A stretch of 64,000 nt of DNA, taken from the NCBI GenBank assembly GCA_040414855.1, contig JBEDUQ010000038.1:38749-102748 (forward strand), in the 5' to 3' direction. Positions 7,062-29,490 of the stretch are shown here, in pieces. The position numbers and the translations under genes were made by a program. A model generated the notes under the pieces. That model searched no databases, had not been told where the DNA came from, and saw only the letters and a list, made by a program, of their open reading frames with translations. Origin of the DNA: Actinomycetota bacterium. GTDB lineage: Bacteria > Actinomycetota > CALGFH01. Every line of letters begins with the position of its first letter. Position 1 is the stretch's first letter.

Positions 7062-8402
7062 TCAGGCGTGGCCGGACCACGCGAGACCGTCGGGGAAGCG
7101 ATGCGCGGCGAGGGCGGCCGGGGTCATTGCGGCGTAGCCGGGCGACCTCGGCAGAAGATACCGGCCGCCGATGACCCGGACGGGCTCGGTGAAGTGCTCG
7201 TGGAGATGATCCACGTACTCGATCATGCGCTCGTCGAGGGAGCCGCTGACGGCGATGTAGTCGAACGCGGAGAGATGCACGACCAGCTCGCAGAGACCGA
7301 CGCCGCCGGCATGCGGGCACACGGGCACGCCGAACTTGGCGGCGAGCAGCAGGACGGCGATGACCTCGTTGACGCCCGCGAGGCGGCAGGCGTCGACCTG
7401 GCAGGCGGCGATCGCGCCGGCCTGGAGGAGCTGCTTGAAGATCACCCGGTTCTGGGCGTGCTCGCCGGTGACGACCCGGATGGGCGCGACCGCCCGGGCG
7501 ATGGCGGCGTGGCCGAGCACGTCGTCGGGGCTGGTTGGCTCCTCGATCCACCACGGCTCGAACTCCGCCAGCTCGGCCATCCACGCGATCGCCTCGGGCA
7601 CGCTCCAGACCTGGTTGGCGTCGAGCATCAGCCCCCGCTCGGGACCAAGCGCCTCGCGCGCAATGCGCAGCCGGCGCCGATCGTCCTCGATGCTCGCGCC
7701 GACCTTGACCTTGACATGGGTGAAGCCGGCGTCCACGGCCTCGCGGCACAGCCGACGCAGCTTCTCGTCGTCGTAGCCGAGCCAGCCAGGTGAGGTGTCG
7801 TACGCGGGATAGCCGCCGGTGGCCAGCAGCGCCTCGCGCTTCGCCCTGCCGGGCTCGCGCTCGCGCAGCAGCGCCAGCGCCTGCTCGGGCGTGAGCGTGT
7901 CGGTCAGGTACCTGAAGTCGACCAGCCCGACGATCTCCTCGGGCGTGAGGTCGACCAGCAGCTTCCACAAGGGCTTGCGGCGCGCCTTGGCGTAGAGGTC
8001 CCAGACGGCGTTGACGACCGCGGCGGTGGCCATGTGCATGACGCCCTTCTCGGGCCCGAGCCAGCGCAGCTGGCTGTCGCCGACCAGCCGGCGCCACAGG
8101 CCGCCCATGTCGGCGAACAGGTCCTCCGCCTTCTCCCCCACCACCATGGGCGCGAGCGCCTGGACTGCCCGCACGCAGATCTCGTTGCCCCGCCCGATGG
8201 TGAAGCAGAACCCGTGGCCCTCCAGGTCCGGGTCGCTGGTGCGAAGGATCACGTAGGCCGCCGAGTAGTCGGGCGCGGGGTTCATGGCGTCCGAGCCGTC
8301 GAGCGCCAGCGAGGTCGGGAAGCGCACGTCGATAGTGTCGAAGCCGGTGACGAGGACCTGGGGAAGGATGCTCAGCTCGACACGCTCCCCTCGGTGTCGC
8401 AC
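7062..8402 (-). CDS. fucD: Enolase-superfamily dehydratase of the L-fuconate dehydratase (FucD) type
   Basis: 446 aa, colinear with the FucD family as I remember it: [88 protein letters not shown]. The exact start is uncertain (a GTG at VELSIL is possible). Confidence 0.8.
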
Positions 8403-8645
8403 CGCCGGTCGACGGCGGCATGCCTCTGTTGCCCATGATCAGAAGAACACAAGCGGGAATCAGGGTCCATGAGCGGGTCCATGGGCGGGTCCCGGCGGGG
8501 CGCGGCAGGAACGAGCGCCGTGCCGAGTCCGCGGTGTCCGACCCCACGCCCGCGTAGCCGCCGATGGCGCCGCGATCTCGATGGTGCGCCGGACTGCCGC
8601 GCCTGATAGGTTGCCCGGCCAGGGGCTGTGCGGGAGGCGTGGGCG

Positions 8646-10079
8646 ATGGCGAAGAAGAAGGGGCGGGACCAAGCCGGCGGACGATCCCAGGACGTGGTCG
8701 AGCGCGCGGCGGCCGAAGGGCTCGACCTGATCCGCTTCCTGTACGTGGACCACGGCGGCGTCATTCGCGGCAAGGCCACCTCCCGCTCGCGCCTACGCGA
8801 GCGGATGGAGACCGGCATCGGGCTGACGCTGGCGATGCAGGCGATGAGCATGCTGGACGAGCTGCAACCGGTCGCCGGCATGGGACCGGTCGGCGAGATC
8901 CGTCTGGTGCCTGACCCAGACTCGTTTGTCGTGCTTCCGTACGCGCCAGGCGCCGGCGCGATGGCGGCGGACATGCGCAAGCTCGACGGCGAGCCCTGGG
9001 AGGCGTGCCCGCGCTCGTTCCTGAAGGACGCGGTCGCCACCCTCGCCGGCCACGGCTACGCCCTGGTGGCGGCGTTCGAGCCGGAGTTCACGCTGGGCCG
9101 GCGCGAGCCGGCGCCGGACGGCGACCCTGACGCGGTCGACCGGCTGGTGCCGGTCGACGACAGCCTCTGCTTCTCGTCGACCGGGTTCGGCGCCGCCCAC
9201 GACTACGCCATCGAGCTGGTCAGGGCCCTGGAGGCGCAGGGGATGGTGGTCGAGCAGTACTACCCCGAGCTCGGCCACGGGCAGCAGGAGCTGTCGATCC
9301 GGCACGCGCCGGCGCTCCGCGCCGCCGACAACCACGTGCAGTACCGCGAGACGGCCCGCGGAGTCGCCTGGCGCCAGGGGCTTTGGGCGAGCCTCGCTCC
9401 CAAGCCGATCCCCGATCAGGCCGGCAACGGCACGCACCTGCACGCCTCGCTGTGGGAGCTCGACCCCGACGGTGGTCCCGGAGCGCCCGGCGCCCGCAAC
9501 CTCTTCTACGACGCCGACGACCGCAACGGGCTTTCCGATGTCGCCTACAACTTCATCGGCGGGCTGCTGGCGCACCTTCCCGCGCTGGTCGCGCTCACCT
9601 GCGGCAGCGTGAACAGCTACCGAAGGCTGGCTCCCGGGTCGTGGAGCAGCGCCTACACGTGCTATGGCATGGACAACCGCGAGGCCGCCGTCCGCATCGC
9701 CTCGCGGATGTGGGGTCTGGAGGAGGCCTCGGCCAACCTCGAGCTGAAGCCGTCCGACTCGACCGCCAACCCCTACCTCGCGCTCGGCGCCTACATCCAC
9801 GCCGGGCTCGACGGCATTCGCAACAAACTCGACCCGGGCGCGCCGACCGATGTCGACCCCGCCAAGCTGAGTGCGTCGACCCGCAGGCGCCGCGGGATCC
9901 GCCGGCTCCCCGACTCGCTCGGCGCCGCCCTTGACGCGCTGGAGCAGGACGAGCTGCTGATGGACGCCCTCGGGCCGCTGCGCCGGACCGCCTACCTGGC
10001 GGTCAAGCGCTCCGAGGTCGCCGCCTTCGCCCAGCACGACACCGCGTTCGAGTGCTTCCACCACTTCACGAAATTCTGA
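8646..10079 (+). CDS. Second glutamine synthetase family protein (GlnA-like paralogue)
   Basis: ORF 8628-10079. ATG 8646 sits 8 nt after GGGAGG, so it is preferred. Motifs: EPEFTL, ELGHGQQELSIRH, NGTHLHASLW, DNREAAVRI, ELKPSDSTANPYL. Confidence 0.85.
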   Translation: MAKKKGRDQAGGRSQDVVERAAAEGLDLIRFLYVDHGGVIRGKATSRSRLRERMETGIGLTLAMQAMSMLDELQPVAGMGPVGEIRLVPDPDSFVVLPYAPGAGAMAADMRKLDGEPWEACPRSFLKDAVATLAGHGYALVAAFEPEFTLGRREPAPDGDPDAVDRLVPVDDSLCFSSTGFGAAHDYAIELVRALEAQGMVVEQYYPELGHGQQELSIRHAPALRAADNHVQYRETARGVAWRQGLWASLAPKPIPDQAGNGTHLHASLWELDPDGGPGAPGARNLFYDADDRNGLSDVAYNFIGGLLAHLPALVALTCGSVNSYRRLAPGSWSSAYTCYGMDNREAAVRIASRMWGLEEASANLELKPSDSTANPYLALGAYIHAGLDGIRNKLDPGAPTDVDPAKLSASTRRRRGIRRLPDSLGAALDALEQDELLMDALGPLRRTAYLAVKRSEVAAFAQHDTAFECFHHFTKF

Positions 10080-10140
10080 GCGGCGAGGTCCCTGACCAGC
10101 GGAAAGATGTCAGCCAGGGCGCCTATATAGGGTTGAGGAG

Positions 10141-10160
10141 ATGACCTCTACAGAGGTCAT
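10141..10160. promoter_or_regulatory. Perfect 9+9 palindrome ATGACCTCT-ac-AGAGGTCAT
   Basis: Direct read. Lies 62 nt after the GS-like stop, at the left edge of the lower-GC islet. No T-tract follows, so it looks more like an operator than a terminator. Confidence 0.4.
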
Positions 10161-10307
10161 GGGCGTGGTGGCCAAATTCGCGAGGCCAATGCTCGCTTCT
10201 GTGGTCGGTAGCAAAGTGAGGCGACGAGCGTAGACCTTCTCGGGGGTTCTACCGGTGTGAGGTGAGGAGGTCGCTCAGGGTGATCCGGATGGGCGATACT
10301 CCCGCGC

Positions 10308-11144
10308 ATGTCGATTCGATCGGGCGCCACTCTCCGCTTGTCCACGTTCGATGCCGCGCTTGTCCCCGACCCCGACGCTAGTCCGGTGACGATCGATCTT
10401 TCAGAGTTCGAGTTCATCGACGTGTTCGGGCTTGTGGGTATCGCGTCGCACATCTTGGAGGCCAGACTTGCTGGACGAGAGGTTGAGCTTCGTGTCCCCA
10501 AGAATCCCGATGTCGCGGCGTACGTAGCTCGGATGTACCTGGGTCTATTGCTCGATGCAACCGACGTTGAGCTGGATGCGCCCTTGCCGGTCGTCGAGGA
10601 ACGCGACCAGCGCGGAAACCTAATCGAGCTGAAGCCCTTCAACAGCACACGTGGCAGCGAGGAGCTCGGCGAGTACCTTTGGCACCGGCTCGCCGATCAA
10701 GCGGATGGAGCCCTTGTTACACAGATCTACGAAGCGGCTGGTGAACTGGGCAACAACGTCATTGAACATGCCAACTGCCCAGCTGGCGGCTACATGGCAG
10801 CGCAGTGTTACAGGCGCGGCCAGCCGGACGAGTACGTGATCATGGCCGTCGGAGATGCCGGCATCGGCATCCAGGAATCATTGCGGCCCCGGTACGGCCC
10901 GATGACTGAAACAGAGGCGATTGAACGGGCGCTCCAGCCGTTCGTGTCCGGCACTAACGATCCACATCGAGGGCAAGGGCTTCCCGACATCGTCGAGGGC
11001 GTTACGGGGTTCGGTGGGATCGTCTACGTGCGAAGTGGATCTGCCGGCCGATGGATCACACGCGATGGGGTATCTAGCAACAACGTGTCACGCCTTCGCG
11101 GTACGATCGTGGGTGCCAAAGTGCCATGCCGGCCCGGTCGGTAG
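10308..11144 (+). CDS. GHKL/RsbW-like (HATPase_c) ATP-binding protein with an N-terminal STAS-like domain
   Basis: 278 aa. N-terminus is STAS-like (VTIDLSEFEFIDVFGLVGIASHIL). The C-terminal half has an N-box (AAGELGNNVIEHA), G1 box (VGDAGIGI) and G2 box (HRGQGLPDI), as in SpoIIAB/RsbW-type serine kinases. The RBS is weak and the start is not certain. Confidence 0.7.
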   Translation: MSIRSGATLRLSTFDAALVPDPDASPVTIDLSEFEFIDVFGLVGIASHILEARLAGREVELRVPKNPDVAAYVARMYLGLLLDATDVELDAPLPVVEERDQRGNLIELKPFNSTRGSEELGEYLWHRLADQADGALVTQIYEAAGELGNNVIEHANCPAGGYMAAQCYRRGQPDEYVIMAVGDAGIGIQESLRPRYGPMTETEAIERALQPFVSGTNDPHRGQGLPDIVEGVTGFGGIVYVRSGSAGRWITRDGVSSNNVSRLRGTIVGAKVPCRPGR

Positions 11145-11162
11145 GTCCAGGCGAGGGGGGAA

Positions 11163-11471
11163 GTGGAGCGTCCGATGCCGACACTGACCACACCCAAGCT
11201 CGTCTCCAGCAGAGACCAAGCTCGGGACCTGACTGCGGAGCTTCCATCCAACCTGGAGGACACCACCGTCGTTGTCGATTGCTCAGAGCTCCAGGCGAGC
11301 ACGCCCTCGTTCGTTGACGAGCTGGTGAAGATTTGCCTGGTGGAGCGCCATGCGCAATGCCTGGCTCTGGTGAATGCTCCCGAACGGACCGAGGAGCTTG
11401 CTCGCCGTGCGGCTCGCAATAGACAGGTGGCCGACCGACTCGAGATCGACCGGCCCCTCCGGCTCGGCTAA
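11163..11471 (+). CDS. Small STAS-like protein (resembles DUF4325)
   Basis: 102 aa starting 19 nt after the preceding stop. VVVDCSELQASTPSFVDELVKICLVE matches the 'DF.gV..is.SFaDE' core I associate with DUF4325/STAS-like domains. ATG 11175 is an alternative start. Confidence 0.6.
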   Translation: MERPMPTLTTPKLVSSRDQARDLTAELPSNLEDTTVVVDCSELQASTPSFVDELVKICLVERHAQCLALVNAPERTEELARRAARNRQVADRLEIDRPLRLG

Positions 11472-11546
11472 CAGGACTACCGGGCGGAGTCGTCCACGCT
11501 CGAGCCCGGACCTGCCGCGACCGGCAGGCAGGCCGATGGTCGACGC

Positions 11547-11912
11547 CTACGAGGACCTGTTCCGGCGGGTGGTGCGCTGCGGGGACTCGCGTGAGGATCG
11601 CCGTCGTCGGGACAGGTAGAGGACGGCGAAGGCCACGTTGGCGATCACCAACAAGAAGGCGAGCATGATCAAGGCGGCGCCGTCGTTGACGCTCTCTCTG
11701 GCCTGGCAGGCACGCAACTGCTCGCCGGTCATCCCGGCGCAGCCGGACCGCGTCAGCACGCTGAACAACACGACCCCGAAGAACGCGTTGGTCACGAGCG
11801 CGACCAGCAGCAGCCCGCGGCGTCGCCACCACGGCTCCTGATCAGGGTCGGACGTGGGCGGCCGCTGACGGCTCCGCGGCGTTCCCCGCGTGCCACGAGT
11901 CTTGTTGGGCAT
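11547..11912 (-). CDS. Hypothetical small membrane protein (2 predicted TM helices)
   Basis: C-terminal 121 codons of ORF 11547-12347, from ATG 11912: MPNKTRGTRGTPRSRQRPP...GLLLVALVTNAFFGVVLFSVL...AALIMLAFLLVIANVAFAVLYL...RRRRSS. A basic N-terminus is followed by two hydrophobic spans. I recognise no homology. Confidence 0.4.
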   Translation of the reverse strand: MPNKTRGTRGTPRSRQRPPTSDPDQEPWWRRRGLLLVALVTNAFFGVVLFSVLTRSGCAGMTGEQLRACQARESVNDGAALIMLAFLLVIANVAFAVLYLSRRRRSSRESPQRTTRRNRSS

Positions 11913-12096
11913 CGACGCTCCCTGGTCCGCGGGCTGGGAGACCGCAGGATATTCAGGCCTGGCCCCCAGTTGTGGGACCTCCACGTCTCGATCGGCCCAA
12001 GGCGTGGGCGACCTCCCTACCACGATGGATCCTCCGCTTCTCCACCGCAACGACCCGCGGCTCGCGACGCTCGGCCGGCGCCCGAGTCCTGAGAGC

Positions 12097-12110
12097 ATTG
12101 TCCACAGCTG
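12097..12110 (+). promoter_or_regulatory. Variant motif aTTGTCCACAGCTg (actinobacterial-type DnaA-box nonamer TTGTCCACA), about 107 nt upstream of the permease start
   Basis: Direct read. Same core and orientation logic as the GGTTATCCACAGATTT copies, but with an A-to-G change in the nonamer. Confidence 0.35.
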
Positions 12111-12216
12111 GAGCAAAAGCTCTGGTTCGTGTCGTGGCCGCGGGCTACGATGCCCGCGGTCGCGCAACCTCGACCAGCGCCTCCCGGGGTATGGAGCCCG
12201 AGCTGGAGGAGGAATC

Positions 12217-15262: not shown

Positions 15263-15826
15263 TCAGGGCGGGACGAACTTGGAGATGATCCAGCCCTTGG
15301 CGGGGTCCTTGAGGAGGGTGCACCAGTAGACCTGGCGGTTGCCGGGGACCGCCCGGATGAGCCTGCCCGACTCGAGCATGAGCTTGGCGTCGGAGCGGCC
15401 GAGCAGGGCGACGACGGTCCAGTGCCGTTCGGAGACCTTGGTCATCTTGAGGATCTGGACCGGCAGCTGAAGGCCCTTCCACACCTCGTTCTTGCTGAGC
15501 ATGGTCTTGATCTCGTCCCGGTCCTTGGTGAGCTGGGGCGAGTCGGGGGTGTAGATGGTGGTGAGCAGGCGCTGGTTGCGACTGGTGAGCGCACGCTCGC
15601 GCACGTTCATGATCTGGAAGAAACGCGAGGTGACCTCGGACCGCTCGCGGATGAACGCGGGGTCGATGGTAGTGGTCGGGGCCGGCGCGGTGGTGCGCGT
15701 GGCCATGACGCCGGCGGCGGCACCTGAGAACAGCAGCACCAGGACCAGGCCGACGAAGAAGAGGCCGACGGTGCCGCCATTGTCCTGGCGGCGGGCGGCA
15801 TGACGTTGTCGCTGGGTACCGATCAG
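15263..15826 (-). CDS. Hypothetical membrane-anchored protein (single N-terminal TM, compact C-terminal domain)
   Basis: Only the last ~188 codons of the 605-aa ORF 15263-17080 are plausible: ...GGTVGLFFVGLVLVLLFSGAAAGVMATRTTAPAPTTTIDPAFI...WKGLQLPVQILKMTKVSERHWTVVALL...KGWIISKFVPP. There is no ATG/GTG before the TM span. A CTG at 15826 overlaps the thyX-like TGA (CTGA), so the start is uncertain. Confidence 0.45.
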   Translation of the reverse strand: MIGTQRQRHAARRQDNGGTVGLFFVGLVLVLLFSGAAAGVMATRTTAPAPTTTIDPAFIRERSEVTSRFFQIMNVRERALTSRNQRLLTTIYTPDSPQLTKDRDEIKTMLSKNEVWKGLQLPVQILKMTKVSERHWTVVALLGRSDAKLMLESGRLIRAVPGNRQVYWCTLLKDPAKGWIISKFVPP

Positions 15827-29109: not shown

Positions 29110-29490
29110 GAAGTCTTCCTTCTCCTTCTTTCTTGCCGCGCGCGTGGCGCGCGAAATGCCGGTACCCGCCAGTGCGGGTCTTCGGACCCGTCCCGGTCAC
29201 CGCGCGCTTCCCGAAGCGCTTGCTCGGTCGGCCTGCATGGTGCGGGTGGCCGGGGGACGGCACGACGGCGGAGGGAGCGGCATCAGAGACCGGACGGCCA
29301 CCACGCGCCAGTTCCCAGTCGAAAGACCTGGAAGCCAAGCTCCAGGGCTCACCACTGACAACTGACACGACCAGGCTGGCCAACCTCTCCCGCGCGTGCC
29401 GGTCACCATGCCAAGGGCATCACCTTCCCCGCGGCCGCAGCGCTGCGTCGCCTCGCTCCGGCCCGCCCCACACCGCCGGACCCGTCCAGT
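29110..29490 (-). promoter_or_regulatory. 381-nt rpsO-pnp intergenic leader
   Basis: Long non-coding spacer between the rpsO stop and the pnp start. pnp leaders are processing and autoregulation sites in other bacteria. I could not fold it by eye. Confidence 0.35.

Follow-up and report, generated by a model that had tools for sequence, protein, structure and literature searches.

A predicted STAS-GHKL kinase and its small STAS-like partner, related to CapK/CapS and VapK/VapS, form a horizontally mobile pair inserted in an actinobacterial gene cluster

The stretch of DNA analyzed here, hereafter the window, covers 64 kb of contig JBEDUQ010000038.1 of the Actinomycetota assembly GCA_040414855.1; all coordinates are positions in this window unless a locus is named, and L-numbers are the labels of the compared loci and contigs. 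Between a GS-like gene and a permease gene, the window carries an insert that contains gene 1 (10308-11144, plus strand), coding for a CapK/VapK-like predicted kinase of 278 aa, followed by gene 2 (11175-11471, plus strand), coding for a STAS/DUF4325-like protein of 98 aa that is its presumed substrate. Judging from sequence comparisons, the closest described relatives of this pair are CapK/CapS and VapK/VapS, not RsbW/RsbV. The pair is probably a horizontally acquired cassette of the CapK/VapK type, composed of a sensor kinase and a STAS substrate, without either of the two known types of output. A preliminary description of the window had proposed an orphan module of the partner-switching type. 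Its orphan character holds, as no sigma factor, PP2C, PIN or helix-turn-helix (HTH) is attached to the genes, and its partner-switching character is supported, with the refinement that the module is of the CapK/CapS-VapK/VapS kind rather than of the RsbW/RsbV kind.

The two reference systems were described recently. CapK, an HTH-STAS-GHKL protein, is turned on by single-stranded DNA (ssDNA) and phosphorylates Ser54 of CapS, a STAS-winged HTH (wHTH) protein, freeing CapS from DNA (PMC13373217). The genes for CapK and CapS lie upstream of operons for CBASS, Bub and Thoeris (Chambers et al., EMBO J 2026, PMC13373217). VapKSC combines the STAS-GHKL kinase VapK, the antitoxin VapS, which consists of a STAS domain and a C-terminal helix (the inhibitory element, residues 94-116), and the PIN toxin VapC, and F54 of VapK and W68 of CapK are the aromatic residues proposed to stack on ssDNA (PMC13373217). 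A coupling to DUF4325 genes has been noted for one VapC subfamily (PMC5499597); VapS turns out to be a strong DUF4325 protein (E 2.7e-17), which explains this coupling.

On sequence evidence, gene 1 is homologous to CapK and VapK and has the same STAS-GHKL make-up. A hidden Markov model (HMM) of the gene 1 family, scored on the published CapK and VapK sequences at the same database size as a search of the PDB, gave 55.6 bits for V. cholerae CapK, 49.0 for E. roggenkampii CapK and 41.2 for VapK (E 4e-14 to 1e-9), the best PDB chain being CheA with 17.4 bits; CapK is thus the best sequence match of gene 1 (49-56 bits, E 4e-12 to 4e-14). Alignment of profiles with hhalign returned CapK at 96% and VapK at 93% probability, the VapK alignment extending over 244 columns and both domains. 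In these alignments, VapK F54 (numbered as in the supplement of the paper) pairs with F36 of gene 1, at a position occupied by F or W throughout the family, and CapK K237/K239 stand, as the hhalign pairing reads, opposite R169/R170 of gene 1, basic residues that follow a conserved Tyr. Besides the GHKL motifs, a linker motif (dvrsYlaRmhlg, LIEL) is common to the gene 1 family and CapK, and is not found in RsbW.

The protein comprises a STAS-like domain (~aa 9-95), in which F36 lies, and a GHKL domain (~aa 100-275) with an N-box (E146/N150/H154), a G1 box (D183-G185-G187) and a G2 box (R221-G222-Q223-G224-L225). All these residues are invariant in an alignment of 42 sequences, in which the N-box Asn equivalent to CapK N218 is kept and the predicted active site is intact; the motifs ELGNNVIEHA, VGDAGIGI and GQGL singled out in the preliminary description are therefore present, their core residues being invariant. 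The AlphaFold model (pLDDT 86, pTM 0.88) displays an alpha/beta domain at the N-terminus and a Bergerat fold at the C-terminus. In Pfam, gene 1 matches STAS_2 (E 1.6e-3), HATPase_c (3.8e-3) and HATPase_c_2 (0.027), all below threshold, and NCBIfam has no match for either gene; searches of PDB sequences with the cassette families found only marginal CheA and STAS matches. Some relatives of gene 1 do exceed the gathering scores of HATPase_c, HATPase_c_2 or STAS. The early assignment of HATPase and STAS domains is thus upheld, not by Pfam matches of the window proteins themselves, but by relatives that pass the thresholds, by the gene 1 model that matches SpoIIAB and by the DUF4325 nature of the partners of homologous kinases. 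Over its full length, gene 1 also matches phrog_3364 (E 1.2e-21), and both PHROG 3364 and DUF4325 (PF14213) are annotated as being of unknown function.

Homologues of ~278 aa form 110 clusters, nearly all of metagenomic origin, and remoter homologues of ~300 aa carry HATPase_c_2. A full scan with HMMER, in which the gene 1 profile was compared with 1.84 billion cluster representatives, gave 563, 3,710 and 8,836 clusters at or below E 1e-30, 1e-10 and 1e-3, respectively, the first two figures being clusters at 50% identity, from which much of the kinase family would appear to be uncharacterized. Almost all of the best 150 matches are full-length (260-310 aa), which indicates that the STAS-GHKL architecture of ~275 aa is widespread.

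Foldseek retrieved only GHKL proteins with the gene 1 model, and the best compact match of its GHKL domain was SpoIIAB (1tid_A, probability 1.0, target-normalized TM 0.70). This match speaks for classical partner switching, in which gene 1 would be an anti-sigma kinase of the RsbW/SpoIIAB type, gene 2 an antagonist of the RsbV/SpoIIAA type and the sigma factor would be encoded elsewhere in the genome. Gene 1 shares with RsbW and SpoIIAB the fold of a GHKL Ser kinase, and its partner is predicted to have a STAS fold with a Ser at the N-terminus of helix 2; moreover, distant relatives, which JGI lists as anti-sigma regulatory factors, score above the HATPase_c_2 threshold, and actinomycetes carry many orphan RsbW/RsbV-like genes. 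However, the family profile that gives 41-56 bits on CapK and VapK finds neither SpoIIAB nor RsbW in the PDB sequences at E<=1, and the additional fused STAS-like domain, like the linker motif, is common to gene 1 and CapK and not to RsbW. The insert and its flanks contain neither a sigma factor nor a PP2C gene. In most of its other contexts, too, the pair has no linked sigma factor gene, an extracytoplasmic function (ECF) sigma factor gene being found 3 kb away in L004/L006 and absent from the sister loci. Finally, a foreign composition and a presence in phages and plasmids, both documented below, would be unexpected for the resident regulator of a sigma factor. Classical partner switching is therefore improbable.

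Our preferred assignment, to the CapK/VapK type, extends to gene 2, a divergent STAS-like partner in which Ser45 would occupy the phospho-acceptor position. Since its homologues all begin with MPTLT or MSTL, translation most likely starts at ATG 11175, 30 nt past the gene 1 stop codon, and not at GTG 11163; the product of 102 aa starting 19 nt downstream of gene 1 that had first been proposed should be shortened accordingly. The motif S42-T43-P44-S45-F46-V47-D48-E49 at the start of helix 2 is invariant, the block S45-F-V-D-E-L being kept, and identity to a second clade is higher for gene 2 (~70%) than for gene 1 (~50%). The AlphaFold model (pLDDT 84) has four beta-alpha units (beta-alpha-beta-alpha-beta-alpha-beta), with S45 at the start of helix 44-57 and only ~6 residues beyond the last strand. 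The top Foldseek match is the anti-sigma antagonist TM1442 (probability 0.98), together with STAS domains of SulP proteins; these matches are weak (E 0.013-0.07), and the CapS and VapS-VapC crystal structures 9Z71-9Z7O are not among them. In Pfam, gene 2 reaches STAS_2 with 15 bits (E 0.029) against a cutoff of 29.2, thus failing the gathering threshold, and has no DUF4325 match at E<=0.1; its relatives match DUF4325 (E 0.001-0.043) and STAS_2 (3e-4), all below threshold. The motif S-[FC]-x-D-E recurs in the partners of all three kinase clades, in phage Phishy and on a Janibacter plasmid, and the partner in phage MPV1 keeps the Ser (SFLDQ). By eye, the CapS phospho-site "SS54F" stands opposite "PS45F" of gene 2, and the distant-clade partners read "YSCADE." Because profile similarity is not significant, the proposed homology of gene 2 draws on its position, this motif and the weak fold match (Foldseek E 0.013).

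The likeness to both reference systems thus concerns the sensor and its substrate, and the differences concern the output. On the one hand, gene 1 resembles VapK (301 aa) as a STAS-GHKL protein devoid of an N-terminal HTH, the next gene downstream codes for a small STAS-like partner whose conserved Ser stands where helix 2 begins, and weak DUF4325 matches exist among the relatives of gene 2. On the other hand, gene 2 lacks the C-terminal inhibitory helix of VapS and has no significant sequence similarity to it, no PIN or VapC gene was found in the insert or in any context examined, and the host range of the window cassette is actinobacterial and its composition distinct. Likewise, the order of a kinase gene followed by a STAS gene and the S-F dipeptide at the phospho-site (CapS S54-F55, gene 2 S45-F46) recall CapKS, but gene 1 begins directly with its STAS domain where CapK has an HTH, gene 2 is STAS-only and, having no wHTH, therefore cannot be a DNA-binding repressor, and the flanking genes are GS-like, permease and amidohydrolase genes instead of an immune operon downstream. 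The output step of both systems is consequently missing, as gene 1 has no HTH, gene 2 has neither wHTH nor inhibitory helix, and neither a PIN gene nor an immune operon lies close by. The distant clade with kinases of ~300 aa and the Janibacter pair stand nearer to CapKS than the window pair does because their partners bear a wHTH. In this distant clade (L101 7899-8390; L117-L186), the partners are 143-200 aa long and end in a wHTH-like tail (…LDELVERRLAARxPGG…), an architecture that is CapS-like for that reason.

Genes 1 and 2 are compositionally foreign and were acquired by insertion at the junction between the GS-like and permease genes. The synteny scan, carried out on species-representative genomes with the GS-like protein (8628-10079) as the query, returned 79 loci. 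In five of them (L013, L015, L026, L029, and L050), the gap between this GS-like gene (GS2) and the permease gene is 35-215 bp, vs 2.1 kb in the window, and the amidohydrolase gene also comes after the permease gene; gene 1, gene 2 and a third, convergent gene coding for a small protein with two transmembrane helices (2-TM gene) are absent from all five. The horizontal insertion initially proposed is thereby corroborated. The nearest relative, L013, is a metagenome-assembled genome (MAG) labelled "Actinomycetes bacterium" (identity of 84% for GS2, 88% for the permease and 79% for the amidohydrolase). Since DNA homology to L013 breaks off at 10077 and returns at 12119, the insert corresponds to positions 10078-12118 (2.04 kb), flanked on the left by the GS-like gene (stop at 10079) and on the right by the permease gene's native leader. 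An islet at 10080-12216 had been reported beforehand; its right edge has to be moved, as 12119-12216 is native. In four independent soil-metagenome runs, contigs of even depth cross both junctions and show the same insert structure, and no empty-site joint was seen among them, which indicates that the arrangement is real and apparently fixed in the population. The runs holding the insert sequence are DNA metagenomes only. All three open reading frames (ORFs) of the preliminary description exist, no further supported ORF was found inside 10078-12118, and no paralogue of the three genes occurs elsewhere in the window.

Composition tells the same story for part of the insert. In 300-nt windows, G+C is 0.60-0.63 across ~9950-11450 and 0.70-0.75 in the flanks, and the lowest-GC stretch of 1.4 kb in the entire 64 kb begins at 10051 (0.612 vs a mean of 0.713, standard deviation 0.031). 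G+C at third codon positions (GC3) is 0.685 in gene 1 and 0.727 in gene 2, vs 0.92-0.94 in the GS-like, enolase-type, permease and amidohydrolase genes of the host. These profiles bear out the lower-GC islet noticed at the outset. Its extent of ~2 kb stands in part: because the 2-TM gene is host-like (GC3 0.893, GC 0.69), the foreign composition is limited to ~1.5 kb, namely the left intergenic segment and genes 1 and 2. A milder second GC dip (0.65-0.68) is found at ~15350-15800, in the 3′ part of a minus-strand ORF that apparently codes for a membrane-anchored protein.

Beyond the window, genes 1 and 2 constitute together a horizontally mobile unit. The small partner gene follows the kinase gene in nearly every surveyed locus with readable downstream sequence; a few survey rows gave a spurious out-of-frame ORF, and those that were gene-called (L004-L007) have a partner of 92 aa. 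Relatives of the pair at 63-67% identity occupy unrelated contexts: the pair adjoins a gene for a NERD protein in L009, accompanies genes for SSB, an SDH protease and a CcdA-like protein in L010, lies close to metal-homeostasis genes in L011, and belongs to an element with Prim-Pol, Fic and HTH_31 genes in L092-95. In L008, a pair at 42% identity adjoins HigBA. Across L008-L011 and L092-95, GC3 of the pair is 0.70-0.82 vs 0.93-0.97 for core genes. A copy of the same cassette on a forest-soil contig (L187 688-1942) is 91.6% identical in nucleotide sequence to window 10216-11474, with unrelated DNA further upstream. The 96-aa ORF located upstream of the L187 cassette was considered as a PP2C fragment and dropped, as it has no match in Pfam.

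The comparison with L187 also bears on whether the islet could be inert hitch-hiking DNA made of decaying remnants. The ratio of non-synonymous to synonymous substitution rates (dN/dS) between the window and this independent contig amounts to 0.11 in gene 1 and 0.22 in gene 2, both of which are therefore under purifying selection. Such a ratio does not suit inert DNA, nor do three intact ORFs, intact catalytic motifs and an insert structure that is the same in four metagenomes. Decay would be compatible with the existence of kinase pseudogenes elsewhere and with the insert itself: in and around it, searches detected no integrase or transposase, no direct or inverted repeats at the flanks, no attachment site of the tRNA type, no consensus of a promoter or terminator, and no Rfam family. 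Overall, the islet can hardly be inert.

Mobile replicons carry the pair as well. By tblastn, gp32 of Gordonia phage Phishy, annotated as "histidine kinase," is 35% identical to gene 1 (E 3e-26) and is followed by a gene 2 homologue of 94 aa (L103 5772-6056; …ISFADELIKEILVNRHA…), the pair lying between the tail genes and the integrase/repressor genes. The deposited start of Phishy gp33 (75 aa, 29192-29419) is apparently too late, as the 94-aa ORF opens 3 nt past the gp32 stop codon. In Marinitoga phage MPV1, the kinase gene and that of a 123-aa partner, a bona fide DUF4325 protein (E 3.9e-16), lie beside a serine integrase gene. A Janibacter plasmid carries a kinase gene and, beside AAA-ATPase and ThiF-like genes, that of a 188-aa partner made of a DUF4325 domain that passes the threshold and a MarR-type wHTH. 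A scan of IMG/VR gave a single weak viral match and no close homologue of Phishy gp32 was found in other deposited phages, so that the pair is rare among sequenced phages. A table describing Francisella prophages lists, between repressor and integrase, a hypothetical protein of 293 aa, one with DUF4325 and a small transmembrane protein (PMC7924643), a likeness by description only.

These locations are relevant to another explanation, a self-contained toxin-antitoxin (TA) or abortive-infection (Abi) pair, in which the kinase would be harmful, acting on host proteins or on the 2-TM protein, and the STAS protein would be an inhibitor or pseudo-substrate freed upon phage infection. The prophage copies beside an integrase gene fit this view, the integrase side of a prophage being a typical location of superinfection-defence genes, and so do neighbors such as HigBA (L008), the CcdA-like protein and SDH protease (L010) and an AAA_21 ATPase (L096). 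So does the decay of the kinase gene with an intact gene 2 in two lineages. In L096-L100 (e.g., L096 8636-9297), where the locus adjoins the AAA_21 ATPase gene, a kinase remnant (aa 1-66 and 135-173) accompanies an intact gene 2 whose sequence does not vary across at least 24 contigs; L095 (2988-3738) combines a frameshifted kinase gene with an intact gene 2. The nearest described system, VapKSC, is itself a TA-type defence system (PMC13373217). Nevertheless, stable chromosomal copies embedded in operons in two clades are atypical of TA/Abi modules, and the stronger conservation of gene 2 relative to gene 1 between clades better suits a protein with a conserved target of its own than a mere inhibitor. 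PADLOC v2 adds nothing beyond a domain-level match: its sole match (E 1.9e-6) pairs the GHKL region of gene 1 with the N-terminus of DrmA model PDLC02567, neither gene 2 nor the 2-TM protein gives any, and no cassette protein matches as a defence-system component. A TA/Abi pair is thus decidedly unlikely. The match itself indicates that the N-terminal ~250 positions of the DrmA model encode the same STAS-GHKL module. Homology with gene 1 and the phage kinases (E 1e-6 to 4e-11) covers positions ~5-265 of this DISARM DrmA model, which implies the fusion of a helicase with a STAS-GHKL sensor-kinase module.

Returning to a cassette of the CapK/VapK type, its operation can be pictured by analogy with these two kinases. 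Gene 1 would be a soluble Ser kinase in which a STAS-like domain that cannot be phosphorylated is joined to the catalytic GHKL domain, and the groove between the two domains, where F36 (equivalent to CapK W68 and VapK F54) and R169/R170 would lie, would sense a cue of stress or infection, most plausibly ssDNA. Once activated, gene 1 would phosphorylate gene 2 on the invariant Ser45, and phosphorylation would alter the binding of gene 2 to a partner. The output might then be a host protein encoded elsewhere or the convergent 2-TM membrane protein that accompanies this sub-clade. Kinase activity on Ser45, the nature of the cue and any role in defence or stress are thus inferences from homology.

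Several observations weigh against this interpretation. The cassette encodes no effector, phosphatase or DNA-binding domain, the Pfam matches of the window proteins themselves are sub-threshold, and the gene 2 family has no significant profile similarity to VapS, CapS or the distant-clade partners by hhalign. In addition, the window locus lies outside any defence island, the contigs that carry the other 2-TM family members probably lack the pair, a weak inference from their lengths, which equal that of none of the pair-bearing contigs, and two groups of copies are settled at fixed housekeeping sites, which speaks against an exclusively anti-phage role: one is the site capA/pair/DUF2017-clpS in a group of actinobacterial MAGs, and the other a pfkB...Cys/Met-PLP-ftsEX operon in which the ~300-aa kinase clade is translationally coupled. 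Altogether, a role of the cassette in defence or abortive infection is more probably wrong than right by a wide measure, and the defence and membrane-effector ideas put forward in the preliminary description stay speculative, with circumstantial support from the integrase-proximal prophage sites and from the linkage to the 2-TM gene.

Both fixed sites have features of their own. In L001 and L003-L007 (e.g., L001 6786-7937), a capA-like PGA_cap gene lies ~62 nt upstream of the kinase gene on the same strand. PGA_cap proteins presumably belong to the metallophosphatase superfamily, and the PGA_cap gene might supply a phosphatase in this fixed actinobacterial clade. In the distant clade, the full order pfkB...Cys/Met-PLP-ftsE-ftsX-M23 of the operon in which the pair is coupled is a non-defence context.

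The third gene of the insert, the 2-TM gene (11547-11912, minus strand), is convergent to the pair and codes for a basic protein of 121 aa with transmembrane helices at aa 34-52 and 80-98. The loop between the helices contains a conserved C-x10-C motif (SGCAGMTGEQLRAC), the family loop reading SGC-x-GMTG-x-x-L-x-x-C, and the family is tiny, with 5 homologue clusters. Holin-X (PF07332) was rejected as an assignment, as the match is sub-threshold and, of 6 family members, only the window protein and P0232 show it. The co-occurrence of this gene with the pair was found in three contexts: the window itself, L187, where the 3′ end of the 2-TM gene also follows gene 2, and L009, where a homologue (34% identity, E 8e-11) is convergent downstream of the pair. 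The other contexts of the pair lack it, which, with its host-like GC3, argues against a dedicated role. The 2-TM protein is a candidate target of the cassette, and a functional tie to the pair is rather doubtful. It has a part in a more specific proposal, a minimal stress or anti-phage switch: the kinase would sense ssDNA or DNA damage and phosphorylate the bare STAS protein, which would in turn gate an effector other than a nuclease or a promoter, here the 2-TM protein, with a membrane-disrupting or exclusion function, and elsewhere a host protein in trans. This proposal is unlikely as it stands; if true, it would add a third output class to the sensor logic of CapK and VapK and explain the integrase-adjacent pair in temperate actinophages.

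The non-coding parts of the insert are of two origins. The region 10216-10307 upstream of gene 1 (plus strand) is common to the window and the independent contig L187, and presumably holds the cassette's own promoter and 5′ untranslated region; as no sigma-70 consensus was found in 10216-10307, the promoter is placed there by deduction only. The left segment 10078-10215 is particular to the window and contains, at 10141-10160, the palindrome ATGACCTCT-AC-AGAGGTCAT. Direct reading and counting confirm that it is perfect, with arms of 9 nt, as first described; it is nevertheless unremarkable as an edge marker, because the window has 20 matches, i.e., ~15 independent sites vs ~8 expected, for perfect palindromes whose arms measure 9 nt or more. 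Its half-site has no other relevant occurrence, and the palindrome is absent from L187, where homology only begins at 10216.

Outside the insert, the native permease leader (12119-12216, plus strand) is an intergenic segment of ~100 nt, without a match in Rfam, that is ~85% identical to L013 11567-11664 and may serve as a leader regulating the permease-amidohydrolase genes. On the other side, an enolase-superfamily gene (MR_MLE, 7062-8402, minus strand) separates two GS-like genes that abut in L013; its GC3 of 0.94 is host-like, and it therefore represents a second difference of gene content in the same cluster.

By splitting a conserved cluster of GS-like, permease and amidohydrolase genes, the cassette could change the expression of this cluster in the host genome. 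More broadly, CapK/CapS and VapKSC established in 2026 that a pair formed by a GHKL kinase and its STAS substrate couples the sensing of DNA damage to differing outputs. In the clade of the window, the partner has no recognizable output domain, and its binding target would define a new output for this sensor module. The target of the bare STAS protein would also tell a device of phage defence or prophage exclusion from a general stress regulator that spreads horizontally.

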